Positions 9,914-32,500 of a DNA stretch of 37,756 nt are shown here, piece after piece. A program made the translations under genes and the position numbers. The notes under the pieces are model-generated. The model was given only the letters and a program-made list of their open reading frames with translations. It was not told the origin of the DNA and did not search any database. The stretch spans positions 1 through 37,756 of the forward strand of contig UYFQ01000206.1 in NCBI GenBank assembly GCA_900617105.1, in the 5' to 3' direction. Source of the stretch: Hydrurus foetidus (Eukaryota). The stretch's first letter is position 1, and every line of letters starts with the position of its first letter.

Positions 9914-10243
9914 TGTTGACGGATCTTCGGTTCAGCCGACACGTACGTGGGTGAGTGTACAGCGGTTGAAGAACGCTCGGTCAAGGCTCGTGAAATAAGC
10001 TTTGGGTTGTCAGTAATCACTTGTTAATTGACTGTGCTTCATCCCTGCTGAAGTCCCCGAGTCCCTTTCAACGCAACAACAAAAGACATCCTACACTACT
10101 TCTTGAAGTACCGAGCCGAAGCACGGGTCCACACATCGTCGTCACGCATGCACGCACACACACACACACACTAATCCGTACGTCCGTACGAATGCATAAG
10201 TACACAGATTGTGTTCGTGTCATAAACTAAGATATCTCCAACA
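9914..10243 (-). repeat. Copia 3' LTR
   Basis: TGTTGACGG...CTCCAACA, direct repeat of 15175-15504. Preceded on the minus strand by a short purine-rich tract GGCATAGGGGTG (10244-10255). Confidence 0.95.
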
Positions 10244-10309
10244 CACCCCTATGCCACATCACAATCATCACTGTTCACGCATCACGCATAATTCTTCACA
10301 AGATAATGT

Positions 10310-11953: not shown

Positions 11954-12183
11954 ACACAAATGAATCTGGAATTGTCGATGAGAGAGGAGTACCGGTAGAC
12001 TATGCAGCGGCAAGCGGCGAGTGGGACGACCACACTGATTCGAGGGATGCACTGAGTGGTGCGAATGAGTCACAACCGGCGTATGCGAGTCCTCAACGGT
12101 ACGGACTGAATAAGCATGCAGTGATAGATTTCTTCAGGAACGGAAAAGGGACAGCGCTGCTGACGCGCAACTACGACGGAGAC
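11954..12183 (+). other. 230-bp inverted segment of Copia pol (IN-RT linker)
   Basis: Flipping it yields a stop-free in-frame join SMNG-HTNESGIVDE...ALLTRNYDGD-GTDWGDYVLN and removes the TGA at 12134-12136. Confidence 0.85.
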
Positions 12184-14015
12184 GGCCGTTCATGCTGGCT
12201 ATCAGGTCGTCCATTGCGTGGTCGGACTCAGTATCGTGTGCATGATGTGTTGGTTCACTATGATGCTCGCTTATGTCTAGCTGATTCGGCTCGTACAGTG
12301 TCTCACCGCTATCGTACTGCTGATCCCGGTAGTCACCCCCGTTTTCAACCGGTTCACCCCCACTGTCCGGTCTCTCGTCTATCGCTTCCCCATGCTCATC
12401 TCCGTCTAGCGGTAATATGGATGGGTCTACACCGTCGTTCACCGTAGGCTCGATCGTGTCTGGTAGATTCCCCCTAGAGTCTCCGTCCTGTTTGTACGAC
12501 AACGGTCGCTCGTACAGCTCACCTTTACCTTTCACACGCCCGTCTGCTAGCGCAAGTTCGTTAAGCCTCTTGATTACCGATTCTGGCATCGGTAATATTC
12601 TAAATTGGTCTCTATTCACCAGTCGTCCAGTACTCAGAGAGAGCATTCTCACGGACCCTGTACGGTTGCCAAGCGGGAGCATCACCACGCAGTCTTCTGT
12701 GCGACTCCCTAGTCCTGCATCTGTGTTTGGTACGGTACACTGCGCGTAGTCGCCAAACGAACAACGAAAATCTCGCTTACCATCCGGCTTCCTTCCTATA
12801 AATGCCTCGCGGGGACTTGGGCCGTATCCCCGTAAACCGGCCGGTTCGTAGTTCAGCCTAGATATACAGTACAGTACACACATGGCTATACCCACGGTCG
12901 ACAGGGTGAACGGCAGGTGGTACGCTACGTGAGCCCGTACCCTTTCTTTAATAACTCTTATTCTTCTCTCGATTCTAGCCACGTGACCCCCAGCTCCGCT
13001 CACGTCGACTTCAACTCCGAGTTTTCCCAACTCGTCGACAAGGCTGGTGACCGCCCCCTCTCCGTCGCTCATGATGATGGACGTCCGAAAGTTTTGAGAC
13101 GCGAGGACACCGAGGAAATGGTTGATGCCGATCTTGACTTGCCCTGCTGTCCTCGCCGGCTTCTTTAGATCAGCTGTGTTAAGACTGTATGCGATAGTTA
13201 GTCCTAACGGAGTAGCCACCCCAACTAGAATAGCTAATTTCTCTATAAACATAATGTCAATCGATAACACCTGATCCCGTTGTAAGATTTTTGTGCTCAC
13301 GGTTATATCGGCGACGGCTGTAGCTCTCTTCGTTGTTTTACCCTTCAGCGATGCGATGTCCTTCCCCCATATCGCGTCTGCGATCTGGAAGTCTCTTGCT
13401 GTCACGTCAAAATTGCTCCCGCTATTGACGATTGACATCGCCTGTTCTACCGTCGGGAATCCCATTCTGGCCAGTAGCTCGCGGGCACGCCTGCCCTGCT
13501 CTATTTCGCGTTTCGTAAATGCCTTTAAATTCTCGACTACTGTCGTGACAAGTGCGCTCCCGCACTCCATCTCTCTCCAATCACAGGAATAGAATCTTCC
13601 CTCGCTCCCAACGACACGCTTTCTTCCGAAGCGATAGATCCTCGTGCTTCCCTTCGGCTGGAGAGTGAAGCAGTCGCTCAGGTGGTCGTACCGAATCGAC
13701 GCCCCTGAGTCGACTTGGGAAGCAAATGACAGAATATTTGCTGAGGCTGAACCGCTGTAGTACACCGTCCCAAATTCGCCGAACTCTCCTTCCCGATCGA
13801 CTGACACTCCCGCTCCCTGTTGAATTCCGCTCACTTTTATTGTTCTCTCGGACTTTCTAACGTCGGTAAGCAAATCAGGATTGCTGAATATATTTAGTGA
13901 CGCCTCGTTGTCTAGTAGCACGTCAAATCGCGAGAAGCAGCACACTTCGTCTGCAGCCACAAGTGCTACTCCCCACTCGCTCGATTCACCTTCGTACTCC
14001 TCGTCCGACTCCCCG
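12184..14015 (-). CDS. pol: Copia protease + integrase
   Basis: VLLDNEASLNIF protease motif; DDE core SIDIMF / SDGEG / IERRIR; SPREAF..KPD..FG motif. Confidence 0.9.
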
Positions 14016-15150
14016 TCGTGACGTGGACTTTTTCCGATGACGATTTCTTTTGTGGGCAATCCCTTGCGTAGTGCCCTTTAGTTTCACACTTGTAACACTC
14101 CACATCCGCTATTGATTTCTTACTGCCCCCTCCGGCTTTCCCCGCTTTCTTCTCGGCCGGGTCCTTGGTCATAGTGACATGTGCACCTTCGGCAACGTAC
14201 GCCGCGTTCGCACCCGCAGGTGTCGGAGTGGGTGTATGGACGGGCACTCGGTCATTCCACTCTGACGAGATGTGGAATGCTAGGGCGAGCGTGGTGGGGA
14301 ACGCACCCGGTTTGCGCCGTAGCGCGTCGTGCTTCATATCGTCCAACATGACCTTGTACCGACGGGTGTCGAGTTTCCCTAGGAAGTCCAATGCTCGCTT
14401 TGACTCCGACACTGCGGCGATCCCCACGGCTGCGTTCGCTGTTACCTGTTCATCAAATCTGTTCTTGAAGGTGACGATATGTTCCCTCTCACCTTGCCTC
14501 ATTGACCCGTACTTACTCTCCTGTTCGTGTTGGTTGTACTCTTGCAGTGACTCGTCTCCACCGTACATGTGTGTGAGGTGGGTTCTTCTGATGAGTGTCC
14601 ACAGCAGAACACAATCCAGGGTGTCATACGCGGTCTTGAACTCTTCCTCCTCCCTCACCCTACTCTGCGATAGTAGCGACATACGCTTCCACATCATGGG
14701 GTACATTGTACGTTCGTTCTCACGTTGCGTTTTGACATCTCTCTTCCTCTGAATATAATCATCCTCCTTAAACTTCGCTCTCGAACGTTCCGACGCTTTT
14801 CGTCTTCTCTCGTTTCTCGCCAGTCTGGCGGCGACACGAGCAGGTTTCGCAGCAGCGTACGCTACGGCCTCTGGGTCAGGTGCTGGCTGTGGTTGATCGT
14901 CGCCCCCGTCGTCGTCGTCCTCATCCGAGCTGGAGCTCTCCGACGACGAATCCGCAGGGTAATCCCTGTATGAAATTCTCGGGAGCTCATATCTCACGTT
15001 GGTGGAGAAGAACATGCCCACTATCCCGTATAGCTCGGTTACTACCGTCTGCATGTGTTCTCTCCATCTTATGATGTTGTTGTGTTTGCCGTATTGAAGC
15101 GTACACTCCTCTGTACTTTTGAAAGCTTCTGCGGCGCGTTTGGGAGGCAT
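13966..15150 (-). CDS. gag: Copia gag with CCHC zinc knuckle
   Basis: ATG at 15150 (MPPKRAAE), MRQGERE motif, CYKCETKGHYARDC. One base out of frame with pol near 14012. Confidence 0.9.
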   Translation of the reverse strand: MPPKRAAEAFKSTEECTLQYGKHNNIIRWREHMQTVVTELYGIVGMFFSTNVRYELPRISYRDYPADSSSESSSSDEDDDDGGDDQPQPAPDPEAVAYAAAKPARVAARLARNERRRKASERSRAKFKEDDYIQRKRDVKTQRENERTMYPMMWKRMSLLSQSRVREEEEFKTAYDTLDCVLLWTLIRRTHLTHMYGGDESLQEYNQHEQESKYGSMRQGEREHIVTFKNRFDEQVTANAAVGIAAVSESKRALDFLGKLDTRRYKVMLDDMKHDALRRKPGAFPTTLALAFHISSEWNDRVPVHTPTPTPAGANAAYVAEGAHVTMTKDPAEKKAGKAGGGSKKSIADVECYKCETKGHYARDCPQKKSSSEKVHVTTGSRTRSTKVNRASGE

Positions 15151-15174
15151 TGGAATGCCTGCTCCAGTCAATTA

Positions 15175-15504
15175 TGTTGACGGATCTTCGGTTCAGCCGA
15201 CACGTACGTGGGTGAGTGTACAGCGGTTGAAGAACGCTCGGTCAAGGCTCGTGAAATAAGCTTTGGGTTGTCAGTAATCACTTGTTAATTGACTGTGCTT
15301 CATCCCTGCTGAAGTCCCCGAGTCCCTTTCAATGCAACAACAAAAGACATCCTACACTACTTCTTGAAGTACCGAGCCGAAGCACGGGTCCACACATCGT
15401 CGTCACGCATGCACGCACACACACACACACACTAATCCGTACGTCCGTACGAATGCATAAGTACACAGATTGTGTTCGTGTCATAAACTAAGATATCTCC
15501 AACA
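15175..15504 (-). repeat. Copia 5' LTR
   Basis: Direct repeat of 9914-10243, followed by TSD CACCT. Confidence 0.95.
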
Positions 15505-15768
15505 CACCTTCCCTTCGTTCTGCCTGTGGAAACTTCACAGAATTTGAAAAATCGATTGATTCAAAGAGTCCCAACTCTGAGCTGTGAAGAGTTCTTTCAA
15601 ACTGGAGAAACGAGATCGATCGGAGAAGAACCCATCATAAAGTGATCACGAAGTCGATAGCGTATACCAGTGCAAATGTTGTTTTCGGGTGGGAGTGTTT
15701 TGGAATGCAAATTTTGACGGAGTTACAATTATCAAGTGAGATCATGATATTTTGATCTTTTCTGCACG

Positions 15769-17685: not shown

Positions 17686-18172
17686 CTCAGCACTTGATGG
17701 CTCACATAGTGCATTGGACAGATCCAATTTGCCCTACCTCTATTCGACTCCCAGAACTCATCGCAACAACGCTTTGCGTTTCCAGCAGATGCACAGCGCA
17801 AAAGATATACTGTGTCAGCCAAACTCATCACGATTAGGCAGTCTAGTGATTGACTGGCTGGTACAAAACAATACTCATAGGTCGCCTTTTTATGAATTAC
17901 ATGATTAAATAGATCCATACTTGAAGAATTTTCTTTCACGTGTAGTATGCGGTGTATGGCATAAGCTGGTGAGGAGAGAAGGAGATATCTCAGATGTTCC
18001 GACTGAAGAAGCTTAGTAGCTGTCCTCTACTCATTGCATTTCCGGGATCATCCCTTCAAGAGACAGCGTCTTTTTGATCTACTACTTACTTCCGAAACGG
18101 CATTTTTGCAATCTCATTTACCGGAACAAAATGAGGTGAGCTTTCGTCAGCATTATCCGAATCGTCGATTCA

Positions 18173-18472
18173 TCAGCCGTAGCTGCGATCGAACATCCAA
18201 TTAGTATCAGATATATCTTTCTGCAGATCCCGCAGTTTACTTAACGCATTCGCCATCAAAAGGGCATCGGCCTCCCTCTGCACTTCATTTTTCGATAACT
18301 TCGTTTTGGCTGCCATCGACGACCACATGTCAATCTCGTGTTGCAACAGTGCGCTGTTCGCACCGGTACCATTTGAGATATTACTTGCAGAAAGATGATT
18401 TAATTCGCGACGCGGTGGAATGTCTGGTCTTCGGGCTGGAGATGTTGGCATTGGGGGAGTTGTGGAATCCAT
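18173..18472 (-). CDS. Small 99-aa protein, possibly APC/C small subunit (APC16-like C-terminal helix)
   Basis: First ATG at 18472, Pro/Ser-rich N-terminus, then helical LSKLRDLQKDISDTNWMFD. Family assignment is weak. Confidence 0.4.
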   Translation of the reverse strand: MDSTTPPMPTSPARRPDIPPRRELNHLSASNISNGTGANSALLQHEIDMWSSMAAKTKLSKNEVQREADALLMANALSKLRDLQKDISDTNWMFDRSYG

Positions 18473-19148
18473 TGTCGGTTTGACGTCCGCTGTGATTTTA
18501 TTCCAAATTAATTGCCGCTTAATGACAAAATTGCCGAAATGTCTCGTATAATAGAAATCGTCACAACAGCCAGGATAAAACACCGATTCTGAAGACGTAG
18601 AGGATTTCCTTCAAAGACGGATAGTAATCACAAGAAGCAGGCAGCAGGCAGCAGGTCGCAGAGATGGCTTTTGATCGGGCGGGAAGTTTTTTATTAAACG
18701 GATCTATCCGGTTTCGGGAAGGAACCATTGAAGTTTAGTACGATTGTATGTTGTACATATAGGATAAGAATTGGGATTGCTCCACTTTGAAATTTGAAAG
18801 ATTGTGTGAGATGTTTTTATTTTTAATGAATGAGAATCAATGTGTGAATTGTGAGAATCGTGAACGATAAGATATGAAATGAATTGCAATTTGATTGAAC
18901 TATGAATTTCAACTTTGAGCTGCGTCGGATAGGTATCTAAGCTGCGTACGCGTGTATACACTGAAAAGACCGTGGTAGAAGCTGTTCTAGCTTTGAAATG
19001 AATTAGTTGTGCTCGCAGAGGAGATTTCGGAAAGAAAACATTTTATCTGGGAGTAATTACTTCTTCCATGTATCCCACCTTTATCAATATATATTACGGT
19101 TTCCAGCTTCCCGCGAATCGTCATTCCATGAAATCTATGAGCCAGTAA

Positions 19149-19368
19149 GGCGTGTCGGTTGCAAAAATTGCGCGGCGAAGTCCAAAATCCGCAGTGTACA
19201 GTAATCTCGATGGTCGATCACACTCGCGCATCGCACATATCACTCTCAAACTACACCAATATCGCTGCTGCGACAGTAGAAATTTTTGTGCTACAACAAG
19301 GACAGTCTCAGCAAACTGTCGTGATATTTTTCTACTGGACCCCAGCATCGAATCTAGTCAATTTGCCC
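19149..19368 (+). repeat. Left TIR (220 bp)
   Basis: Reverse complement of 29056-29275, about 4 mismatches by eye. Confidence 0.95.
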
Positions 19369-19410
19369 ATCGCCGTGCTGTCTCTCAATACAGCATTGAT
19401 CTGTAAAAGG

Positions 19411-21332
19411 ATGGGCATCAAGGATCTTTCGAAGCAGTTGCGAGTCTCCAACAAAGCCACTTCAAAGTTATCGGATTTGAAGGACCAAATTCTGGGCGTT
19501 GATGCACCTATCTGGCTGAACAGAGCTATTTTCAGCTCTCCCGAAATTTGTCATGGTTTTCATCAGGAACCGAAAGTGAGCCTAGCGTATATTATTGACA
19601 TGTACATGGACTCTCTGCTGTCAATATTCGAAGCAAACAGTATAAAGTTACTTTTTGTACTCGATGGCGCAAGGAATCCTCTGAAAAAGGACACGAATAT
19701 AGCTCGGGAAAAAAAAAACGACGACGCTTACATTGAAATGGAGAATTTGATAAAAACCAACGATACAGAGAATGTAAAAAGAATTAATCAGTTAAAGAAG
19801 CAAGCTCTATATGTAAGAGAAGACATCGTCGCTGGGTTCGTTGCCTGGTGCATCAGAAAGGATCTAAAATTTGTCTGTGCTTTGATGGAAGCCGAATGAG
19901 AGCTATGTAGACTGGAAAGCGACGGAGTTATCGATGGAATTCTGTCTGATGACTCTGATTGCCTAGTCTTAGGCTGCAAACTTGCTGTCCAGCTTCTTGA
20001 GAAGAATGCTGATCCTATGGGATTGAATTGCTCGTTCGTGCAAGGGTCCCGTTGGTACGACTTCGTCAGTAACGAAGTAATCGATCAGCCAACTATACCG
20101 GAGCTATCGGAATTAGCCGTACTTATGGGTTGTGACTATCTTGATAGAGCCTATGGCAATACAATCTTTAAAAAATTAAGACATTTTTTTCTAGATGGAG
20201 GAGCGATCGGGACATAATTCTGGGCGAAATAGAAACCAAAGGGCAAGTTGGAGGGAAAAGAATGCGTGCTGGCTTGGTGGGATACAAACAGAATTTTGAT
20301 TATGCTGCCAACATATTCCAGTTTGCGCCGTGTTTCGTCGTTAGGAGTCGGCATTTAGAGGTCACAGCACGAGATTCTTTCTGGTCGAATAGCTATGACG
20401 TAGTTAGGGGAAATCTAAGATCACTGCCCCCTGATTCCTGTGAGAGGTCTTTGTTTGGATTCGATCCCGACGATCACATACCGAATGACATAATCCAGTG
20501 TGATTTATTTACTGCTACAATTTGGATCAGAACATTATTACCATTCGAGAAACATATCATACCTCCCCCAAGAAATTCCGAGAACCAGATTTTACCCTGG
20601 GGTTGTTATCTAGATTTCGAAAAAGTTCCAGTTCCTATGCAACCGACAAGGGCACTCATCTGCTATTTGAAATGTCGCGGACTATCACCTAGAGCATCTA
20701 ATACAATGCTCTAAATTAATTCTGCTGTCGAAAGAGTGATAAATCAAGGCAATAGGGCTCCAGCAATAATCCCTTCCACAAATGACGAAGCTGCTGGTCA
20801 CTACGTAAATCTATAAGTGCTCACTTGCGGAGAGACGCTTATTTGGCTAAATGCTAGCGAGGATGTGTTTCGGCTGCTGAAAGATTTGACAGTGAAGTTC
20901 AATGATACGTTTATTGACGAAAGTTTTGGTGTAGGGAGAAATGGAGTTAGAGAACGTGCGTGGGGGAGGGTAAATGCAGGTCATTTTGATTTAAGTACTC
21001 CAAGATCATGTGAATGCAAATGTAGAGGTAGAGACGGTATTGTTAATGTTCGTATATTTAGTATACAATGTACTCCATCAATGAAAAAAGATGCCTATAT
21101 CGTGCACTTAATTTTGGCAAAAGACGGTGATACCTTTATGCCTGGACCAGCTAGCCGTTGCAATTGCCCTGTAGGTAGGCTATTTTGCAGTCACCTTTTG
21201 GCTTTCATAGTTTTGATGGGAATGATTCAGATGCTCAATGAGAGTGAAGACTATGATTGGTTTACTAACAATATGCCTGAACTCGTCAAATCTCTACACT
21301 CATCATGCATTCCATTTGCTTATGTTTTTTAA
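19411..21332 (+). pseudogene. EXO1/XPG/FEN1-family 5' nuclease fused to SAP-like and SWIM zinc-finger motifs; premature stops and frameshifts
   Basis: MGIKDL..ILGVDAPIWL (XPG-N), FVLDGARNPLK, ALMEAE*ELCRL..DGILSDDSDCLVLGC (XPG-I), LAVLMGCDYL (H3TH), LICYLKCRGLS (SAP-like), SRCNCPVGRLFCSHLLA (SWIM CxCxnCxH). Confidence 0.88.
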
Positions 21333-21356
21333 TGCGACGACATTATGATTAATACT

Positions 21357-21726
21357 TCATGTTGAATTCAATTTTTGTAATCTCTCGGCTGATTGAAAGG
21401 TTGCATCAAATGCATGCCCCCACTTAATCATTGAATCTAAGATAGAAAAATAATCGTACGGTATAACATCAGTCAAAGCTTCTTGATCTGTTACCCTTGA
21501 AAACACTGCCTCTGATGACCAACGCAATCGACAAGCTACTAAATCTTTACTGATTTCATTTTCTTCGAATTGATCTCGACCTGTTAGGAAATGTAGCGTT
21601 ATTTGTGCATTAACATTCGGGTAACTCGGTGCGTCGAAATAAAATCCCCTGTCGGCCAATACCGCACCCCTTATAGGGATTTTTGCCAGTTTTGTTAGTA
21701 GCATCTCCCCCTGCATCCCCACGTAA
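21357..21726 (-). pseudogene. Transposase C-terminal part (second D and E of DDE)
   Basis: VLADRGF...HFLTGRDQF....RLRWSSEAVFSRV matches the ISL2EU/Harbinger DDE_Tnp_4 pattern (ADRGF..PFL.G..Q...R..VE....R). Confidence 0.85.
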
Positions 21727-21730
21727 GTGT

Positions 21731-21927
21731 TATAGCTCGGGATGGGAAAGGAAGAGGCGGAAGACTAGGAGTGGTAGTTAGTTACAGCTAGGAAGCTAGA
21801 AGCTAGGGTTAACTTCTACGTGGAGGCTGTAAGTGGCTACGACGATACAACAGACTGTAGTGTACGGTGGGTAGTGTACCGTAGTACTATCCGGTAGGAT
21901 CGGGACCTTGGACCCGGAACTACCACA
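21731..21927 (-). repeat. Gypsy 3 3' LTR
   Basis: Direct repeat of 27121-27317; element-sense termini TGTGGT...GCTATA. Confidence 0.95.
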
Positions 21928-21952
21928 CTACCCCCACTTATCCTTCTTTCTC
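21928..21952 (-). other. Polypurine tract
   Basis: GAGAAAGAAGGATAAGTGGGGGTAG immediately 5' of the 3' LTR on the minus strand. Confidence 0.85.
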
Positions 21953-22287
21953 AAAGAAAATCTAAACTACACTAAACTATGGCGAAACCCCCGTTTCTAT
22001 GTTTAAAAATAACAATATTTAACATAAATTATAACGGAAAACGATAACCAAAAAAATATGTACAATATTTTTTAAAAAATGTGAAATTATATACAAAAGA
22101 AATTACAAAGGGGTTTCGGAAATGGTGAGAAAGATAAGGATAAGGGAGTATGTACAAAACAGAATCGTTCTGTTGTACGAGGGTCAAACGTAATTATGTC
22201 AGATTTTTACTGACTAAAAAACCATAAAAATCCCTCGTGAGGGCAAAAATTAGGCCAAAAAATCTTCAAAAGATATTACGTTTGAGC

Positions 22288-22413
22288 TCAAACCTCGGTG
22301 GTTGATCCCTCAATATTCCTGGGAACAAAACGTGACATGTTATTGTTCCTCAGGTATGCATGGAGTGCATCACAGAGCCGGAGATTCTTCCGAGGCTCCC
22401 ATGTATTATGTGA
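22288..22413 (-). pseudogene. C-terminal remnant of integrase chromodomain
   Basis: Manual translation SHNTWEPRKNLRLCDALHAYLRNNNMSRFVP...; NTWEP..NL is the chromodomain signature. Confidence 0.8.
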
Positions 22414-22416
22414 GTG

Positions 22417-22806
22417 TGTTCTTGTTTTACCAAGACATACGACCCTATTGGAAACACTGTCAAACCGGATGTTGACTTCTTGTGTTTTTCATCACATTTA
22501 CGAAGTGAGTCGATTGCTGCATCGAGGACTTTGTCCTGTGTTTCGATTAAATCAGCAATATATGTTGAATTTGATGATGATACCAAAGGATACAACACGG
22601 AAAGGGCCTTTCCATTTAGTGTGTAATCGAGTTGGAGGATGTTCTTGTTTTACCAAGACATACGACCCTATAGGGAGCACTGTCAAACCGGATGTCGACT
22701 CTTTGTGTTTTTCATCACATTTCTGAAGTGAGTCAATTGCTGCATCGAGGACTTTGTCCTGTATCTCGATTAAATCAGCAATGTATGTTGAATTTGAAGA
22801 TGATAC
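22417..22806. repeat. 167-bp direct duplication (22417-22583 / 22640-22806), about 92% identical
   Basis: Offset 223 bp, about 13 substitutions counted by eye. Confidence 0.9.
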
Positions 22807-25800
22807 TATCGGTAACAAATGAGGTGTTAAAATCCCTCTATTCAAATCAAGTTTATCCGCGAATAGGATAGATGCTGGACTTGCACCCGTACGTTTATTA
22901 ACTGAACTATTTATAATTCGTTGTACGAACGGAATGCATTTTGCATAATGGACAAGAGACGGTGTATCGAACACCAGTCCTTTTAAATGTCTATTTATCT
23001 CTTTATTGACTCGTTCAACAATCGCATTCTCTTGAGAGGAGTAAGCTAGAGTGAGGTTATGGGGCGTACCCGTAAGATCTAAGAACTCTTTTATGAGATC
23101 ATTAGCGAAATGGGATCCACGATCCGATCTTATCATGTTTGGCGAACCGAATCGACCAAAATGTGTTAATAAATTCTCCGCTGCAGATTCGGCAGTAGCG
23201 TCCTTACACCAGAACATTTCTGTCCATCTGGAGAAGGTGTCAATTATGACGAGAATATACCCCTTATCGGGAAAAGGACCCACATAATCAATATTCAACG
23301 TATCGAAAATTGCGTGAGTAGAAGTTGAAAAATGGGCTGCATTGATTTTCGCATCAACCGCACTTAGTTTTTGACAACAAGGACAGTTCCGTATGTATGA
23401 ACGTACGTGCTGTTTCATATTTTTCCACACTTGGTTTAGACTGTAAAGTCGAGTGAGGGTTCGGTCGACACCGTTGTGACCCACAATTGCATTGTGGCAC
23501 ATCTGGATATGAAGTATTTGTTCATCTGTGGCCGGTTCGATAACCGTTAAAGCCGCCACACTTGTGGAAGAAGATGAAGATGATGATGAACAACCATCTC
23601 TGACAATTGTCAATGGTAGAGCAATTTCAGTAAGATTTGGACATAAACGTGATAGCGCATCGGCTAATTCGTTATCAGATCCTTTAACAAAATGAACGGT
23701 GAAATCGAGTTCTTGCATTGCAATGAACCACCGTGCTACCATCGAAGTAGGGTTTTGTTTCATATATGTCAAATTCATATGATCAGTATGAATAGTGAAT
23801 TTTCTATCTCGGATAAGGTAATCCAATTGTTGGCAGCAATAAAAGATAGCGTAAGCCTCCTTTTGTATTGTTGACCAATTAATCTGAGATGCAGATAGAG
23901 ATTTGCTAATAAAAGCGATTGGCTTCCATTCGTCATTAATGACTTGGAATAATACACCACCGATTCCATAATCAGATGCATCAGTATATAATCTGATGGG
24001 TGAAGTTTCATCGATGAAATACATCAATGGACAACGAGATACAGCGATCTTTGTCTCATTGAATGCGTTTGTCCCCTCGAGGGTCCAAAAAATTGGAGAG
24101 CGTTTAACCGCCTTTGGGTCCACCATCATGTGAAGTGGTTTTACCATTTCTGAGTGAAAAGGAACGAATTGACGGAAATAATTGGCTAAGCCAAGGAATC
24201 CCCGTAATGCCGTAACTTCTTTTGGAAGTGGAAAGTTGAGTACTGTCTCAATCTTTTCTTTCGACATGGATAAACCATCTTTGTCGATGACTCGTCCGAC
24301 GTATTCGATACGTTTAAGACCGAATCGGCATTTCTTTGCTTTGAGTTTAAGATTTTTAAGTCTAAATCTCTCAAAGACTTTCCTCAAGTTCAAAAGAAAC
24401 TCTGCTTCGCCCCGGCCATATACAATGCAATCGTCGAGATACATCTCGCAACAGCTGTATATGAGACCGTGAAGGACCGTTGTCACCATCTGCTCTTGAA
24501 AGTAAGAGGGGGCACGACAAGGGCCAAAAGGCAATCTTGTGAATTGAAACACCCCCATGAAACATATAAATGCCGTATAGATTCGGTGGGGTGTATATAA
24601 GGGAGCTTGATGGTAACCCGCGGTTAAATCCATCACCCCATAAATATCCGGTTTTCGATTACCGATCCTCTCAAAGAGGTGTTTGATATTTGGTAGTGGA
24701 AAGGAGGCCGGCTCAATGCATTCATTGAGTGCTCGATAATCGATGCAGGTTCGATATGTATCGGCTGTCTTATTTACCATTACAGGATGACTGTAGTATG
24801 CAGCGTTCGACCTCTCGATCACACCATCTTCCAACATCTCTTCGATAGAAGTGCGGAGATAATGTTCCTTTTTAGAGGATTGGGGTCGCACTGGTGCGTG
24901 GTTCGATGGAACCTCCCATTTCTGCCGTGGCAGGTTTATCTCAAACGGCTTGAGGTCAGCAGCTTGCGGAGCTAGCTTATCACTGAATATATCAGCGAAT
25001 TCAGAACAGAGAGTACGGAGATCGTTTTGAAGGCTTTCATCTCCTTCAAAATGAATCTGAGACAAGAAATCATCCGGCCCATTGGGCGGTACATTCCGGC
25101 ACGTCTTGTCACGCAAGAAAGGTGCGAAGGTATCAGTTTTATCATCGTCAATCTCGTCAACGGAGAGTGCGACACCGCTTGGCCATATGGCTTCCGCGTC
25201 ATAGTCTGATGTAACAGTGTCCCCAGAGGTATGTGTGAGGATGGGAATCGAGTCACCATCTAGGTGCGGGGTATCACCCGTACGTTTCGCGAGTACAGTC
25301 GAGACACTGTCCAGTCGCTCACAACCCACATCACCACATGGACTTTGGGTCGCGACTCCCTTGGTACCATCCTGGGTAACGTTACACGTGAACGTTGTAT
25401 GACAACCTGACCCTACGACTTCCTTGGTTAGAGGTGCGTGCAGAATGGCCTTCTTAGGTGTTGGCTTTGGGCAGAGACCGTATGGTTCTTTCCGATCCGA
25501 AAGTCTTGCTTTGGTGATACCCTTTAACATATCGTATGTAGGTGTAATCGACTCTACTTCCGGTTCTTCGGGTATGAAACCCTCAGATATCACACGTCTG
25601 GTGTATTTGTGCCAGTGAAGCGGGTCAAGCTTGGCTATCGCTTCCCTTTCTTCAAACTCGAGCCAACGAGCATCACACTTTCTTTTGTTCTCGGCACTAA
25701 GCTCGGGAGAAATGCCAAAAGCAGAAGGTGTTAATGACATAAAATCATATTTGTTTACAGTTTTACGACTTAACAAAAATTCGATAACCGTGTTCCTATT

Positions 25801-25809
25801 AACTCGCAA
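22552..25809 (-). CDS. pol: Gypsy pol: protease tail, RT, RNase H, integrase (1085 aa, N-truncated)
   Basis: IDYRALN, DLTAGYHQ, YLDDCIV, TDASDYGIG, ADALSR, HHCC (H-NAIVGH...CPCC), DYVGP/SDRGSHF/VERVN, KWKGPF. Confidence 0.97.
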   Translation of the reverse strand: MRVNRNTVIEFLLSRKTVNKYDFMSLTPSAFGISPELSAENKRKCDARWLEFEEREAIAKLDPLHWHKYTRRVISEGFIPEEPEVESITPTYDMLKGITKARLSDRKEPYGLCPKPTPKKAILHAPLTKEVVGSGCHTTFTCNVTQDGTKGVATQSPCGDVGCERLDSVSTVLAKRTGDTPHLDGDSIPILTHTSGDTVTSDYDAEAIWPSGVALSVDEIDDDKTDTFAPFLRDKTCRNVPPNGPDDFLSQIHFEGDESLQNDLRTLCSEFADIFSDKLAPQAADLKPFEINLPRQKWEVPSNHAPVRPQSSKKEHYLRTSIEEMLEDGVIERSNAAYYSHPVMVNKTADTYRTCIDYRALNECIEPASFPLPNIKHLFERIGNRKPDIYGVMDLTAGYHQAPLYTPHRIYTAFICFMGVFQFTRLPFGPCRAPSYFQEQMVTTVLHGLIYSCCEMYLDDCIVYGRGEAEFLLNLRKVFERFRLKNLKLKAKKCRFGLKRIEYVGRVIDKDGLSMSKEKIETVLNFPLPKEVTALRGFLGLANYFRQFVPFHSEMVKPLHMMVDPKAVKRSPIFWTLEGTNAFNETKIAVSRCPLMYFIDETSPIRLYTDASDYGIGGVLFQVINDEWKPIAFISKSLSASQINWSTIQKEAYAIFYCCQQLDYLIRDRKFTIHTDHMNLTYMKQNPTSMVARWFIAMQELDFTVHFVKGSDNELADALSRLCPNLTEIALPLTIVRDGCSSSSSSSSTSVAALTVIEPATDEQILHIQMCHNAIVGHNGVDRTLTRLYSLNQVWKNMKQHVRSYIRNCPCCQKLSAVDAKINAAHFSTSTHAIFDTLNIDYVGPFPDKGYILVIIDTFSRWTEMFWCKDATAESAAENLLTHFGRFGSPNMIRSDRGSHFANDLIKEFLDLTGTPHNLTLAYSSQENAIVERVNKEINRHLKGLVFDTPSLVHYAKCIPFVQRIINSSVNKRTGASPASILFADKLDLNRGILTPHLLPIVSSSNSTYIADLIEIQDKVLDAAIDSLQKCDEKHKESTSGLTVLPIGSYVLVKQEHPPTRLHTKWKGPFRVVSFGIIIKFNIYC

Positions 25810-27109
25810 GGTTAACGGGATAGTATGACATTCGACCTCATAAGAGGTGAATCATATAAATAGGATCGAACGTACGAGAGCCTATTGAATTCAATGTATT
25901 CCCGCGGAATATTGGTTTGTTTCGCTTTAGCACTGAGCTTTAAGCAACATGAAACCAAAGACTGTGAGGCGAAGCCATTCCACTTTTGAGTATTGCCTTG
26001 CAATTTGTTATCAGCATTATACTCGATAAGTACCTTGTTCAGTTTTTTTTTTTTAAAAAAAAAATGTTTGTATGCAATCGTCAATTCTGACGTTGATTTG
26101 ATGAAATTACATTCTGAAGAAGAATCTTTAAATCTGCAAAATGACATCTTATTTTGCAAATATACTAAACGATGACCCACCCCTATCGGGAGTCGAACCC
26201 CGAATATTGTGTGGGTGTAGAATCTGTCAAGATATTATTTTAATTCCTCAAGATATCACTAACGCGCGCGATTCAAGTGTTCTGAATGTGCGATTCATGT
26301 TACCATGACGAAAGTGCATCTAGCGAGAGGTTTTGACCTTATTTAGGTGAAAAACTGATGAAAATCAGTCGCAAACTACGATGTCGCGCTGAGTCCATAA
26401 CTCTGCATGATGATATCGCTTTTATCGAGTAATCGTTGCAAACGATTCTCTAGGATATGAGAGACAATTATGCAGAGGGGCGATCGTGTCCGCCTCCGAT
26501 TTCTCTGTGTATCTGCTGTCAAAAGACAAGCAGAAATCACCTGCTGACACAATGATATATCTCTTCGGAGAAATATGATTGTAACTCATCGAAGACAGAA
26601 GCCCCTCGTCAAAAAAATTTGCGAGAGCTTCGCCTCGTTCGCGTATCGGGTACTTTACGCAAGTAACAGCGAATGAAAGAATTTCAACCCACTCTTGTCG
26701 AGAAAAATTCTATGGCGTGAAAGCCGAATTTTGGGTGATCGAAAATTTTGTGTCCTGTTAAGGATGAAGGAAGAACTTCCTGTCGACCAAAAGACGTCCT
26801 TAGACTAATCTGATGTCGCTAGCAGTGGAACCGGTGTCCAAATTGCTATTGAAGAACTCCTTAATTTCGAGTTGGGAAGCCTCTCGCGACTTCGACCAAA
26901 AACGAACTTTTGAAGACACCTTTCGGAGGGTTTCAAGCAGGAAGCGGCTACGCCAAACTCCTGTAAACTTAAACTAAGTTCTCGGAGCTTCGGGCTCAAC
27001 GAGAAAACGACTCCTCGGAAGTCGTGGAGTGAATCTACTCCTTTGGAAGTCTATCTAAAGTTTGGGACGAGTAGAAAGGTAGAGAAAGAAGCGAAGAAGG
27101 ATGAGCGGG

Positions 27110-27121
27110 AATAGCGCTATT
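27110..27121. other. Perfect 12-bp palindrome AATAGCGCTATT at PBS position of Gypsy 3
   Basis: Read directly. The LTR boundary here is independently fixed by LTR-LTR identity and the TSD. Confidence 0.9.
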
Positions 27122-27317
27122 ATAGCTCGGGATGGGAAAGGAAGAGGCGGAAGACTAGGAGTGGTAGTTAGTTACAGCTAGGAAGCTAGAAGCTAGGGTT
27201 AACTTCTACGTGGAGGCTGTAAGTGGCTACGACGATACAACAGACTGTAGTGTACGGTGGGTAGTGTACCGTAGTACTATCCGGTAGGATCGGGACCTTG
27301 GACCCGGAACTACCACA
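27121..27317 (-). repeat. Gypsy 3 5' LTR
   Basis: Direct repeat of 21731-21927, followed by TSD GTGT. Confidence 0.95.
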
Positions 27318-27321
27318 GTGT

Positions 27322-28997
27322 CTGAACATTTCGTCTCTTAAAGGCTTCTGATGTTTTCCATAGTAAGAAAGTATATAATTGCTCAAAGATTTGTTCTTGT
27401 ATGCTTCATCTAGTTTCTCGTGTATAGTTGACTGCTCCAATTTACAAGTGCTTGATTAATTAGGACCTTGCCTTAAAAGATGATCATTCATTTCTTTTAT
27501 CTGTTTTGCAGAGTATTTCTTGCCTGATTGTGTTCTTATCTCACGATCTCTCATCCTTTGTAAGAAGTCGATTGACCTACTCGCCAGACTTATTGTTTGC
27601 ACACTATCATCTGCATCCGCTTCTGCTTCCTAAAGTGCATCATTTACGTCTTCATTATCAGCGTCTAAAACAATGTCGTCATCAGCACCTCGAGCCTTCT
27701 TCTCTTATCGCAGCTGTTAATATTATACTTCGGTCCTTATAGCTCTTTGTTTTTGTAAATGACATGTTAGGGACATCTATCTCTGGAGCCTTTGTAAGGG
27801 GTACTGTCCCATGATAAGATCCCCACAATGACACTATAGCACTCTCTGTTGCCCTTCCAAGAAATAGAGGACTCACTTCGACAATCAGTCCAGCTGGCGT
27901 AGACCATGTTATCAGTCTACCTGCTGAGTGGTTCACTTTATCCGACCACGTTGCTCGCTTTATAGCACTGTCCTTTTTCGGATCGTTTAACATAAAGTCC
28001 TTTCCATCCACCAAAACTGCGGGAAGTTGTAAGTCGGGAAATAGAATGACGCAGTATATTTTATACTCATTGAAAATCTTGAACCCAAAAAGAGGATTGC
28101 TGAATGATGGGTGAAGAGTATGCCAAGAGTCTGCCAATACGGTGCAGCGCTGTATACCATTCGAGAAGTTCTTGTTTTTTTCTATGTGTTTGTCAATAAT
28201 TGCATCAGATGCGACACGCTCAGCTATCAAAGTATCTTCCACTGTTCGTAGTGATGTAGTAACCTCTGACAATTGTACTTGTAGTTCGGCTATTTTTACC
28301 TTCATCTCTTTCAGCATCGCCTTTAACAGTTTTTCCTGTATTTCCGTAAAAGTGGCACGTACAGCATTATCAGCATCTTGCCTCTCCTGAACTTTCAAGG
28401 CGTTGAGGGTTATGAGCTCCTCCTCCCTAACGCTAGCTTCCGCTGCCATTCTAATCGCAGCCTTAGAACTGCTACTTAATCTAGTCAGCCGAGCCCTGTG
28501 CTATCTTCTCATTCTCTATGATCGTTAGATAGCTCAGTGCTGAATTGTATGTGCAGTTTGGTAGCGCGTAGAAGTTGTTAGATCCAGCTATACGATCGAT
28601 GGCTGTCATTCCTATTTCCAATCCTAATTGACTGTCGATTGCGCTTATAAAATGCTGTTTGGGACCCCTTTTGGCGTTTTCAGACAGCAGTACAGGAGAA
28701 AAGTGACTGAGAGCGACATTCAAATGTTTTTAGGGTCAAATTCATTTATCCTCCAGAAAAGACATGGCGTATGTAACCATTAAGCAACCCAGATTTAAAT
28801 ACAGAGTTCTTTGTCTCTTTTTTTTGACGTAACGCGCGGGATATAAGCATATCCGACCCTGTATGAAATTGAGCCAATGCATTGTCAAAAATATGGACTC
28901 CGAAGAATTGGTTTACATCACATAGATGACCAGAAAAGAAGGATTTTAGTGCAACTAACATATTGGGAGCTCCAGCAGCTTCTGTATGTCTGCGCAT
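27322..28997 (-). pseudogene. Transposase N-terminal and central part (coiled coil, first catalytic D), fragmented
   Basis: ORF 27682-28449 has VLVDGKDF..P..RATWSDKVNH...STPAGLIVEVSPLFLGRATE, matching DDE_Tnp_4 (D..tyS.K....P.G.I..vS....GR.SD). Upstream fragments 28481-28723 and 28746-28997 are on the same strand. Confidence 0.8.
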
Positions 28998-29055
28998 CTA
29001 TCACTATTGAAGCAGCAACATCGCCTACTTGATATTCTCAACGAGATTATGTATC

Positions 29056-29275
29056 GGGAAAATTGACTAGATTCGATGCTGGGGTCCAGTAGAAAAATAT
29101 CACGACAGTTTGCTCAAACTGTCCTTGTTGTAGCACAAAAATTTCTACTGTCGCAGCAGCGATATTGGTGTAGTTTGAGAGTGATATGTGCGATGCTCGA
29201 GTGTGATCGACCATCGAGATTACTGTACACTGCGGATTTTGGACTTCGCCGCGCAATTTTTGCAACCGACACGCC
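29056..29275 (-). repeat. Right TIR (220 bp)
   Basis: Reverse complement of 19149-19368. Confidence 0.95.
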
Positions 29276-29505
29276 TTATTGCGTATGTAAAAGTAACAAT
29301 TGGCTGAAATTATCACGACGAATTCCAAAATCATCTACATCAATTTTGAATACTCATCAAAAACTTTTTACACTTCGTGATTCGGTAATTTTTCTCTGGA
29401 TTCGGTACTGTGTTCTGTCTTCTCACAACAACTTTGACTGCGTTCAGCTTTCAGCCTTTGATCTGTGAATGCAAGCAGCGTTCAATCACAATCACCTCTT
29501 ATTCC

Positions 29506-32500
29506 ATGAGGAATATCTCAGCTATTTTAAGCGAAACTGGGCTTTCAAGGGAGGGTGTGTTACCCGTGCAAAATTTCTGTTTAGATGTTGAAGAACGTTG
29601 TAAGAACAATTCCTGCGATAAACATGAACCAGTACAACTACGGGCCATTCTGCAATCTGAACTCCTGAGTTGTGAGGATGCTTTCGACCTCTTCAAAGTC
29701 ATTTATACTTTAGAAATATTTCTAAACGCTTTCTGTCAAGGCAGATCATTTAAAGAAAGCAATTTAATCGATTGTATTCAATTGGAAATTGACAGCAGAG
29801 TATCAGAAACCCCAGTAGCACACAATGTTGATCCAATATACTTCGACTACGTTGCCACCCTAGACATTATTTATTCTTGGGCGGTCTTCTGCATTAATGT
29901 CGCAACAGTCAGGGAGGAAACTAGGATCAAATCATTTAGTATCTCGGAAGGAGAGCAATTGCGAATTGATAAAGATAGCGTGATAATAGGTGATATAGCT
30001 GTGTGCAGCTTACTTCGGAGCGTTCAGATATGTTTGGCATGTTACTACGACAATGTTGTCGTCATCGAGAACATGAGGAACAGCGACCATGACGGCTGCG
30101 GTGGGAATGATGATTCTGATGATGTTCTCAGACGAACAACAAGTTCAGGCACCGCTGACTATGCTGCACATCCTATCAGAGAAAGCGACTGTGATCATTC
30201 AACATCTACCATCAGCGAGAATCTCGGAATAATGGAAATCAGCACTGCAGACACTGGAAATGTAAACAAGAAAAAAAGCATGAGAAACTTCAAGACGAAG
30301 TTTGAGTCGAGTGAGGGACATGACATGGCAAAGCTGAGAAGAACGCTTCAGTCACTGCTCAGTTTCTGTATGGTGGTTCGAGGTAGTGGAGAGATGATTA
30401 GAATGTCAGTGGAGGAACTCCTATCCGATTCGGAACATGAGACTCTCATCTCTATTCGGCTCGCAACTGCACACACACAGACATTCAAACAGGATGCAGC
30501 TACTATTCCAATCTCTACATCCATATCTCCGTCATTTTTTATGAGTGACATTGTCAGTGATCTTAAGCTTGAAATTGGTTCTGGCAAAATAGATAGTGAA
30601 GAGAAAAAGAAGGCAAGGAGTGAGGACGAAAATGAAAATGACTTCAAATTCATCGCGATTTCTTCACAAGCTCAAAAAGTCGCTGGGCAAATAATTGAAT
30701 TTATAGAATATAGAATATCGCAATGTTCTCAGAAGAACATTCTTAGGAACGAGAAGAAAACAAAGAATGATCTTCGTGACATTTCTGTTGGTAAGGAACC
30801 AACAGCGGTCAGCGATGTGCTGCCCAAGAGTTGCTACGAGAATGAAGAGATTGTAACCATGACGGTCATTTCCCTGTGTCGCCTGTGGAGCACGTGGCGA
30901 GAAGGGGAATGGAATGACAGACTCTCGGTCCACGGTCTGCTCTCCTTCTTCAACCACATGGAATCCAAATTGAAATTGGAATTGAAGACATCAACAGGTG
31001 GGTTGGATATATCATCATATCATACATCTAATAATGTAGCATTTTATCATATTCGAATCATTGTTGTGTGATGATGTCATACAGGGAAATTATATAATAT
31101 TATGATATGATATGTGATGTGATGTTATTTGATATAACGTGGAATCACACATACATCTGAAAATTCCATTTTGCCGTGCACTGATCTGTATTGTATCGCA
31201 CTGTGGAAGACATGATGTAATAGTTCGTACAGTACCGTACTGCGATTCAATCAAGTATGCTTTTCCCCTCTCCTTGTTTCTCCTCCTGTCTTGCCGCACC
31301 CTCCCTTCTCCCCACCCCTCCATCTCTACTTCACATCCCTACCCCTTTCTCAGTTGATGTGCTCAACGAAGTATCGTCTTCCCACCTCCCGTTCACTTCT
31401 AGCTCCCTTGCAATTCAATTCCCTCCCTTCTCCTTGAATTCAGTATTCCTTTCAAGCGCCGCTGTGACAGCCTGCACTCCTCTTGGACTTCAAATGCTAG
31501 ACAGATACCAACAGAAAGACAAACTACTTGGTACGTACGCACGCATGCAAGATACAAGTGTGCAGATTTCGTACTTACTCACGTCATGTACAGCACTTCG
31601 TCTTCGCCACTGATTCGTGCAACAGTAGGGATTCATTTCATCATATTCAAACGGTGCAATGTAGTGGCACACTTTCGTCTGATGAATTTCTTCGTAATCT
31701 GAAACGTTTGATGAAATGTATCTCCCTCATGTGCTACTCACGTACGTACGCACGCACGTACGTACGTCCAATATCTTCCATGGTAATTAATTGATTCACT
31801 CATTCATTAATTCTATTATTTATGAATTCGTTAGTTCGTTCATTAACTTACTGATTGATTAACTGATTTGTTGATCTGTTGATCTGCTCGTTGCAGGTAT
31901 GTTACTGCTTCTGCACGTGGTTAGGAAGTCCCCAGGTGCGATGGTTGCATCTATGAGGTCAGGGAATAAAAAAGGGCTCTCTCTTTTGCTCTCTCCTCTT
32001 TCATACACTCTCTATGTCTCTTCCTGTCTCTCTATTTTTCTTTTTTTCTATTTCTTATCCACCCTCCTCCTCTCTCTCTCTCTCTCTCTGTCTCCTTTCT
32101 CTCTTTTTTCGTTCTATTTTTCCTTTTTTATCCACTCTCCTCATCTCTCTCCACATCTTCTCTCTCGCTCTCTCTGCCTCCCCTCGTGTTGAAGTGAGCC
32201 TCCAGCACTATTCTCTACTGAATATTTATAGCACTGTGCGAAATTTTCATGCTCGGTAATGATGCACCTTTTTTCAATTTTCAGTTCGTGGCTGCTACCA
32301 CTTTTGCTCCAGAAAATCAAGACGGTAACGTACAGTCCTGGTGCAATCGTACTTACGAATAGACTGGTACAGTCTGTCATCATACCGAGCATGGCATCTT
32401 CCACAGGTGTGTCCAAGAAGAGAGATGAGGGGGAGAGAAGGAAGATAGAAGTTGGGATAAGAATGAAGAGAGAAAATAAGATAAGATGTTCGGGACAAGA

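Follow-up and report, generated by a model that had tools for sequence, protein, structure and literature searches.

We analysed a stretch of 37,756 nucleotides from the eukaryote Hydrurus foetidus (contig UYFQ01000206.1 of assembly GCA_900617105.1, positions 1 to 37,756 of the forward strand), and call this whole stretch the window. Between positions 19143 and 29281 it holds what is very probably a decayed 4.5-kb cut-and-paste transposon with two genes, a member of the PHIS (PIF/Harbinger-ISL2EU-Spy) superfamily that has been split by a young Ty3/gypsy retrotransposon. One gene encodes a DDE transposase and the other a predicted 5' nuclease resembling EXO1, with a C-terminal tail that carries SAP-like and SWIM domains. 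Taken as a whole, the explanation that we favor, and consider likely though well short of certain, is a dead element of this kind whose nuclease may work together with the transposase on the 5' strand at the transposon ends. As far as can be told from print, the accessory nuclease makes the element new within PHIS, and its interest lies in the family rather than in the window copy.

Structure of the element

A first-pass annotation of the window had proposed terminal inverted repeats (TIRs) of about 220 bp around two tail-to-tail genes, and this description proved accurate. An inverted-repeat search returned two repeats of 226 nt each that are 98% complementary, the sole such pair in 18000-30500, and blastn over the whole window agreed. 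The interval between the outer TIR edges (19143-29281) spans 10,139 bases, of which the nested retrotransposon accounts for 5,588; in-silico removal of 21730-27320 leaves a transposon of 4,548 bp. Between the TIRs the nuclease gene (plus strand) and the transposase gene (minus strand) converge, and the nuclease ATG at 19411 lies 43 bp inward of the inner edge of the left TIR, where the annotation had placed it at about 40 bp. The features are as follows.

19143..19368, no strand: left TIR, from the inverted-repeat search and blastn; the sequence common to copies runs from 19146 (TAAGGCGTGTCGG...)
19411..21332, plus strand: EXO1-like nuclease pseudogene, about 640 codons, intronless, colinear with intact relatives of 638-651 aa
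19411..20217, plus strand: predicted XPG_N + XPG_I catalytic core, all acidic motifs kept, broken by a TGA and a frameshift
20646..20738, plus strand: SAP-like helix-extension-helix motif (TRALICYLKCRGLSPRASNTML*INSAVERV), including the in-frame TAA at 20712-20714
20880..21263, plus strand: SWIM-type domain, with the CxCx6CxH motif (CNCPVGRLFCSH) at 21159-21194; the TAA at 20814-20816 lies upstream
21333..21367, no strand: inter-gene spacer, 35 bp separating the two convergent stop codons
21368..21729, minus strand: transposase pseudogene, 3' part, with the second D (ADRGF, codon 21651-21653) and the E (RWSSEAVF, codon 21510-21512)
21730..27317, minus strand: nested Ty3/gypsy long terminal repeat (LTR) retrotransposon inside the transposase gene, with GTG on both sides (a 3-bp target-site duplication, TSD)
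27318..28997, minus strand: transposase pseudogene, 5' part, with the N-terminal region, a coiled coil, the first D (VLVDGKDF, codon 28006-28008), an acidic linker and a conserved helical motif
29056..29281, no strand: right TIR, carrying TA at 29277-29278

The accessory gene and its EXO1-like nuclease core

The nuclease pseudogene ends with a stop codon at 21330-21332 and is 85% and 81% identical to its closest intact relative, P0002, over two aligned segments. In diverged copies, homology to the window starts exactly at the nuclease ATG. Four lesions interrupt the gene: an in-frame TGA at 19897-19899 (W in relatives), a frameshift within the A-run at 20170-20175, and TAA codons at 20712-20714 (Q in relatives) and 20814-20816 (E in relatives). 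An intron between 20715 and 20816 can be dismissed, as this stretch is colinear with the relatives and simply holds two stop mutations. As the annotation had pointed out, the acidic active-site motifs are kept despite the stops (GVD, LDG, EAE, DDSD and GCDY are all present), and the window copy still scores 35.7 bits against Pfam XPG_N (cut-off 22) and 31.6 bits against XPG_I (cut-off 24.9).

A search of longer proteins with the N-terminal part of the window gene, read through its stop as X, retrieved relatives in 16 clusters at 52-88% identity, mostly of 634-651 aa with XPG_N and XPG_I. Intact relatives of about 638 aa thus exist, and 46 of the 119 member sequences listed for 15 clusters are 633-701 aa long. 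An alignment of 18 full-length nucleases has 180 invariant columns, which include G.D, V.DG.R, NPLK, MEAEW, DSDC, G.DYL, LE.RGLS and CNCPVGR.FCSH. Compared with solved structures, the profile of this alignment matched human EXO1 best (E 4e-19, positions 1-306), followed by FEN1 (2.5e-11), Rad2/XPG (about 1e-10) and GEN1 (7e-5), and the alignment to EXO1 extends beyond the catalytic core to residue 287. Consistent with this, an AlphaFold model of the nuclease (pLDDT 71) matched EXO1 crystal structures in Foldseek with E 2e-15 and a TM score by target of 0.77-0.83, so that the EXO1 catalytic domain (PDB 3qe9, 5v04 and others) is the best match by sequence profile and by fold. The likeness has its limits: identity to human EXO1 is about 17%, the SAP-like and SWIM tail replaces the C-terminal region of EXO1, and the gene is borne by a transposon.

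Equivalents of EXO1 D30, D78, E150, D152 (E here), D171, D173 and D225 are present in the family, as are those of K85 and R92 in the helical arch, and these seven acidic residues and the arch K and R are invariant in the 18 sequences. We take the acidic residues to be metal ligands and the others to act as their EXO1 counterparts do, with residue numbers from the alignment and with the mutant names in PDB titles as a further guide. This invariance argues for selection on catalysis. From its sequence and predicted fold, the nuclease core can be assigned to the Rad2/XPG (FEN1/EXO1) superfamily of 5' nucleases and described as EXO1-like.

A 701-aa variant of the nuclease (P0011 and P0140-P0147) carries about 50 inserted residues behind the core, and its SAP-like motif and C-terminus also differ from those of the other members. 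Its contigs are long, reaching 21 kb, and none shares its length with a transposase record; the variant may be a domesticated host copy, or it may come from a lineage whose transposase was unretrieved. The atlas offers a lead, and a lead only, that the close nuclease family comes from diatoms.

The SAP-like and SWIM tail

In the close family, no Pfam match to the C-terminal 370 residues of the nuclease passes its cut-off. Pfam SWIM scores mostly fall just under the cut-off in the nuclease relatives, with one relative over it, and in the relatives scanned there is no Pfam SAP match and a weak Ish1/HeH match in four. The fold was more informative. A model of the tail built from 51 diverse relatives (pLDDT 87, pTM 0.77) matches the SWIM region of ZSWIM8 over residues 97-224 (Z 8.8, root-mean-square deviation 2.7, 100 aligned), far above the other matches there, and Foldseek with the tail alone returned only ZSWIM8 (E 0.019). 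Few columns are invariant or nearly so over the 51 relatives, and the SWIM ligands belong to them, C192 and C199 being invariant and C190 and H201 conserved in at least 90%. We conclude from the motif and the model that the tail has a predicted SWIM zinc-finger domain, with CxCxnCxH set in a fold of beta-sheet and helix.

Residues 1-56 of the same model match more than 10 SAP or LEM domains with Z 3.3-5.1, scores that are low, as expected for 45 residues; the matches include SLX4, FAN1 and Ku70. This part of the model consists of two helices (19-27 and 39-51, pLDDT 87-95), the motif L..L...GL....K..L is conserved and LE.RGLS is invariant. The annotation of the accessory gene as an EXO1/XPG-type nuclease with SAP-like and SWIM motifs therefore agrees with the Pfam XPG scores, with the EXO1 fold and with both fold matches of the tail. 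A complex prediction for P0018, an intact transposase relative, with residues 360-651 of P0002 scored 0.03 when run without alignments, and weighs neither way.

We also asked what the tail is attached to elsewhere. Searched against 1.84 billion representatives with its two stops as X, the window tail matched 242 proteins at E <= 1e-3, of which 133 reached E <= 1e-10, and 150 listed matches of the 242 were scanned with Pfam. Among these listed matches, XPG_I and/or XPG_N occur in 41 of the 50 proteins of at least 500 aa, and YqaJ in none of the 50; the remaining 100 include three with XPG, nine with a weak SWIM match (one above cut-off), two with a weak Ish1/HeH match and none with YqaJ. The first-pass annotation had suggested that one exonuclease replaced another on the same SWIM scaffold as that of the ISL2EU YqaJ protein. 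This idea finds no support, because YqaJ is absent from all 150 listed tail relatives, 44 of which have XPG domains; nor did SWIM turn up as a term in the PHIS literature searched, including the available part of PMC4482050.

The transposase

The two pieces of the transposase pseudogene are colinear with P0018, an intact relative of 697 aa, and after in-silico removal of the nested retrotransposon residues 446-612 of P0018 align unbroken across the junction. The pseudogene is without about 85 residues (the helix-turn-helix, or HTH, region) that are present in P0018, and it has frameshifts near 28486, 27700 and 21400 plus others in the N-terminal 250 bp.

Taken by itself, the window piece matches Pfam DDE_Tnp_4 at no better than E 0.075. 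Seven of nine transposase relatives give a DDE_Tnp_4 match with E <= 1, and two scores lie just over the cut-off of 24.8 bits; the match is bipartite (profile positions 1-61 and 71-150), with about 200 residues between its parts. The identification as a DDE_Tnp_4-like transposase, already made in the annotation, was secured through a more distant protein, P0296, which was reached via the nuclease tail and scores 28.3 bits against both DDE_Tnp_4 and HTH_Tnp_4, over both cut-offs and with normal spacing. In hhalign, the transposase family aligned with P0296 at a probability of 99.96% (E 8e-39), over the full length, apart from some 180 residues that are inserted in the window's family.

The signature D..K..D..D..P..R(3)E has been described for PHIS transposases (PMC4122938; this paper, PMC4482050, PMC9179366 and PMC10045372 are cited throughout from parts of their text). 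Its residues are invariant in our family alignment, in the motifs VDGKD, WSDK, GRATE (E for D), ADRGF, SYP and RWSSE, and one spacing falls outside the published range because the insertion of about 180 aa separates signature positions three and four. Since P0296 passes both Pfam cut-offs and aligns with the family, and since the signature is invariant, we regard membership of the transposase in the PHIS superfamily (DDE_Tnp_4/HTH_Tnp_4 type) as settled at the level of sequence comparison. As a lead only, its atlas neighbours are all DDE_Tnp_4/HTH_Tnp_4 clusters, and one of them carries THAP with a score of 0.90. Solved structures searched by sequence with the transposase alignment yielded no relative.

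Co-occurrence of nuclease and transposase

Co-occurrence of the two genes in other species had been put forward as a check in the first-pass annotation. We compared the recorded lengths of the source contigs of 115 nuclease and 94 transposase records and found 29 exact coincidences, where one to two were expected from near misses. Of these, 25 fall in six one-to-one cluster pairs (6, 5, 5, 3, 3 and 3), and many of the coinciding contigs are 4.3-5.1 kb long, which is the size of the window element minus its retrotransposon. Examples are the contigs of 4,511, 4,683 and 5,068 bp that pair P0103/P0107/P0102 with P0018/P0072/P0060, and those of 4,671 and 4,302 bp that pair P0148/P0149 with P0200/P0201. 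Identity matrices for the two proteins, compared over the six pairs, are correlated (r = 0.75, a value reached by 4 of 720 permutations), the nuclease being the more conserved of the two.

In four gene models of distant relatives, the nuclease module and DDE_Tnp_4 occur within one protein. In P0240, P0322 and P0340 the C-terminus of the nuclease is followed by an acidic linker and then by the second half of a transposase, with the second D and the E and without the HTH and first D; in P0296 the nuclease tail is followed by a complete transposase. A profile of the helical motif, taken from the 180-residue insertion, matches right after the nuclease in P0340, P0240, P0232, P0322 and P0297 (E 8e-16 to 7e-4; the best of 100 shuffles gave 0.83). 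By eye the insertion motif also seemed to be present in P0296, and this was rejected, there being no match to the profile. Judging from their sequences, P0240, P0322, P0340, P0232 and P0297 could have a split catalytic domain or could be artefacts of gene calling.

Co-occurrence and co-divergence of nuclease and transposase are thus shown in at least six lineages. A nuclease present in only this copy, the case that the annotation had named as fatal to its own reading, does not fit with 16 clusters of relatives, the 29 length coincidences or the correlated divergence. The nuclease is an integral and conserved partner in the element and not a neutrally decaying one-off capture.

Termini and target site

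Contigs from two sediment-metagenome runs provided two more termini, giving, with both window ends, four independent termini. All four start with TAAGGCGTGTCGG in TIR orientation (TAAGGCG), homology among them begins at 19146 (TAAGGCG...), and AA precedes in three of the four. A metagenome contig of the same locus in run X5 has A, not G, at 19145, one base outside the terminus, which makes the flank AA as at the other termini.

The TA at 19146-19147 is either a 2-bp TSD or the first two bases of the element. At the flanks of the window copy, AT, 3-bp and 4-bp direct repeats were not found: a tip at 19148 gives 3-bp flanks of GTA/TAT and 4-bp flanks of AGTA/TATT, a tip at 19149 gives 3-bp flanks of TAA/TTA, and neither choice yields a direct repeat in this one copy. 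A 3-bp TWA duplication is excluded: read on a single strand, the element has TAA on its left and TTA on its right, and all four termini have TAA in TIR orientation, where TWA would produce TAA at one end and TTA at the other. The options that remain are a TA duplication within AA-TA-TT, or no duplication, with insertion between AA and TT as in Spy. The GG near the tip would occupy terminus positions 2-3 with a TA duplication and positions 4-5 with none.

No empty site was found among the contig and read joints of the sequencing runs examined, and none of the joints listed removes the LTR element or the whole transposon. In run X1 the summed contig depth is 128 in unique flank, 1,500-3,000 in the outer 50 bp of the TIR and about 280-520 in the element interior; summed contig depth is no copy number, and in relative terms the outermost 50 bp or so (19140-19200) stand at 12-24 times and the interior at 2-4 times the depth of the unique flank. 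This pattern suggests few full copies and more short derivatives. Joints of 19190 to 19420 (runs X1 and X2) and of 19440 to 28530 (run X1, with a short side of 23 nt) may represent short or internally deleted derivatives of this kind. A profile scan of metagenome contigs with the nuclease alignment confirmed no further copy of the element, a scan with the transposase alignment gave only L001 (a Rab GTPase gene with a weak and irrelevant 64-residue match), and scans of viral contig and genome contig collections returned no further copy.

Relationship to known PHIS groups

The annotation had labeled the element ISL2EU/Harbinger-type. At the superfamily level the label holds, as the element is in PHIS. 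At the level of groups it does not: the element fails the tests that define ISL2EU, Harbinger and Spy, with neither a YqaJ or Myb second open reading frame (ORF) nor THAP nor an AT or TWA duplication.

ISL2EU elements combine a DDE_Tnp_4-type transposase with a YqaJ second ORF and have TIRs of 6-259 bp (PMC4122938, PMC4482050). Our element resembles them in being a two-ORF cut-and-paste transposon with a transposase of that type, in having a 5'-3' nuclease as its second protein, and in its long TIRs with GG near the tip and its very short, AT-rich target. It differs from ISL2EU in several respects: (i) the partner is XPG_N plus XPG_I with a SAP-like/SWIM tail in place of YqaJ; (ii) none of nine family transposases scanned has THAP at E <= 1; (iii) the flanks are AA before TA (or AA and TT without a TSD), where ISL2EU duplicates AT between A and T; and (iv) ISL2EU is reported from animals (PMC9179366), while the window family appears to be microbial-eukaryotic.

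With PIF/Harbinger the element shares the DDE_Tnp_4 plus HTH_Tnp_4 type of transposase, the two ORFs and an AT-rich target. Unlike PIF/Harbinger, it has no Myb/SANT match in the window ORFs or in family members, and its flanks, TAA...TTA with TAA at every terminus in TIR orientation, form no TWA direct repeat. The possible likeness to Spy lies in the lack of a TSD and in insertion in the middle of a palindrome (between AA and TT here, between AAA and TTT in Spy), and the flanks fit a TA duplication equally well; Spy, in the available account, has a transposase ORF only, where our element has two genes (PMC4122938).

A possible role of the nuclease in transposition

It is still to be explained why certain cut-and-paste transposons depend on a second protein, and how the 5' strand is handled in PHIS transposition. 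In the window element the partner belongs to a well-understood class of enzymes (EXO1/FEN1) whose substrates are clear and testable. We find 5' end or flap processing as part of transposition plausible, and a direct role of the nuclease in the chemistry of transposition is a real possibility that we advance tentatively. In such a scheme the DDE transposase would cut and transfer the 3' ends only, and the 5' nuclease, recruited to the ends either through its SAP/SWIM tail or by the transposase, would cleave or resect the other strand at a flap or recessed end.

There is a parallel for such a division of labor in bacteria. In Tn7 the DDE protein TnsB handles the 3' ends and TnsA cuts the 5' strands, which converts nick-and-join into cut-and-paste. 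On our reading the nuclease would do for its transposase what TnsA does for TnsB, and the unrelated YqaJ of ISL2EU would do likewise. The analogy would be one of function, since TnsA is bacterial, has a restriction-endonuclease fold and shares no homology with the nuclease.

We favor a working partner over other roles because the active site appears to be under selection, because ISL2EU relatives carry an unrelated 5'-3' exonuclease, and because some relatives seem to fuse the nuclease to half of a DDE domain. If the XPG type ascribed to the AcademX nuclease is correct, three unrelated or separately recruited 5'-3' nucleases stand beside eukaryotic DDE transposases (YqaJ in ISL2EU, XPG in AcademX and the EXO1-like enzyme here), which would argue that processing of the 5' strand is a recurring requirement. 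A bolder version, which we entertain as a speculative possibility, is that the window element belongs to a widespread, undescribed PHIS clade in microbial eukaryotes in which an EXO1-like nuclease is an obligatory subunit of transposition, in some lineages in one polypeptide with the DDE half bearing the second D and the E, as a counterpart of TnsA/TnsB in Tn7 that arose independently of YqaJ and of the AcademX XPG nuclease. Intact members of about 4.5 kb exist and are open to a direct test with and without the nuclease, and a system of just two proteins, compact and with a defined AT-rich target, could serve as a gene-transfer tool in algae.

Alternative explanations

The nuclease might instead act after excision, resecting the donor break so that homologous repair from a sister copy restores the element, with a net gain of copies. 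This is a serious alternative that we nevertheless consider fairly unlikely. Its appeal is that the closest solved relative by sequence and by fold, EXO1, is a resection enzyme, and that the likeness to EXO1 continues past the catalytic core. SAP domains are also found in the repair nucleases and scaffolds SLX4, FAN1 and Ku70, seen among our fold matches. YqaJ, moreover, is a recombination enzyme of the lambda-exonuclease type. It is the partner in ISL2EU (PMC4482050). What the element would gain from carrying such an enzyme is unclear, however, as the host already has EXO1, and a nuclease that shares its polypeptide with a transposase half is easier to see as part of the transposition complex than as a repair factor acting on its own. 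A role mainly in recruitment, with SAP and SWIM bringing the transposase to the TIRs in the manner of the Myb-like protein of Harbinger and with the nuclease secondary, seems to us improbable. The SAP-like and SWIM domains are conserved as well as the nuclease core, the SWIM ligands persist in 51 very diverse relatives, and Harbinger does need a DNA-binding partner (PMC4122938); against this stand the invariant acidic and arch residues, which point to selection on catalysis, and the transposase's own HTH region. Recruitment by the tail may coexist with either role proposed for the nuclease.

Two further alternatives concern the element rather than the enzyme. The architecture may already be catalogued, as AcademX or as an ISL2EU, Harbinger or 'ISL2PR' entry of Repbase or Dfam, which we judge to be unlikely. 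The nuclease of AcademX is reportedly of XPG type and encoded in one protein with the transposase, and AcademX would then resemble our element as a DNA transposon with an XPG nuclease and, in the fusion, P0240, P0322 and P0296. AcademX is recorded as encoding a nuclease and making 3-4 bp TSDs, and a further PHIS lineage is named 'ISL2PR', in a source that keeps Academ as a separate superfamily (PMC10045372). The transposase here is of DDE_Tnp_4/HTH_Tnp_4 type (that of Academ was compared by description only) and the window copy has no 3- or 4-bp direct repeat at its flanks. In addition, the partners named in the available part of a survey of 380 PHIS families are Myb/SANT or YqaJ, with no mention of XPG (PMC4482050), and the literature searched, with Repbase and Dfam outside the search, contained no text that pairs an XPG nuclease with a Harbinger, ISL2EU or Academ transposase, nor, judged by title, a relevant one on XPG with SWIM and a transposon. 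The first-pass suggestion of a possibly undescribed pairing is sustained to that extent. Finally, the nuclease could be a fragment of host EXO1 captured once by the window copy and now decaying neutrally, which we think can hardly be right. The three stops and one frameshift of the window gene would suit it, but this decay belongs to the whole dead element because the window transposase is equally decayed; and intact relatives exist in many clusters that are linked to, and co-diverge with, transposase clusters, the tail alone having 242 representative clusters at E <= 1e-3.

Several points weigh against the reading that we favor, in which the nuclease is a working partner of the transposase. 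The window copy is dead in both genes: the nuclease has its stops and frameshift, and the transposase has frameshifts, has lost its HTH region and is split by the retrotransposon. The TSD is either TA or none. Linkage in the close family is indirect, as it comes from the lengths of source contigs, and 24 of the 47 nuclease contigs of at least 4 kb, the whole P0011 cluster included, are without a length-matched transposase record; such misses are expected, though not explained, because no more than 18 clusters above 476 aa were listed in the transposase search. The composite gene models come from public gene callers and could be mis-joined neighbours; either way the genes are adjacent there. 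The mechanism itself, finally, would rest on the analogy with TnsA/TnsB of Tn7 and on the repeated appearance of 5'-3' nucleases among related transposons.

The nested retrotransposon and the surroundings of the element

The Ty3/gypsy retrotransposon inside the transposase gene was absent from the first-pass annotation. Its LTRs (21730-21927 and 27120-27317) are 198 nt each and 100% identical, and its pol ORF (22552-25851, minus strand, 1099 codons) has RVT_1, RNase H, integrase zinc-binding and rve domains. Summed contig depth over the retrotransposon in run X1 is 10^5-10^6, as compared with about 10^2 at unique flanks, and the family looks very abundant and recently active. A direct duplication of 184 nt (22412-22595 and 22635-22818, 89% identity, 223 nt from start to start) lies at the 3' end of pol and copies the final portion of the integrase coding region. 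About 6% of RNA run X21 was read and 38 reads were placed; nuclease bins received none, transposase bins few and the nested retrotransposon most, which is too few for inference.

Transposable elements crowd the window throughout. Positions 9914-15508 hold a second LTR retrotransposon, a copia-type element (RVT_2, zf-CCHC) with 334-nt LTRs that are 99.7% identical and a G+C content of 51-55% as against 40-47% in most of its surroundings. A gypsy-type pol fragment (2-1783, with RVT_1 and RNase H) runs off the start of the window, and a 226-nt stretch at 8125-8350 equals its own reverse complement at 92%, forming a long palindrome. Just outside the right TIR, a 560-codon open frame (29389-31071) with no Pfam match is possibly a host gene beside the insertion.

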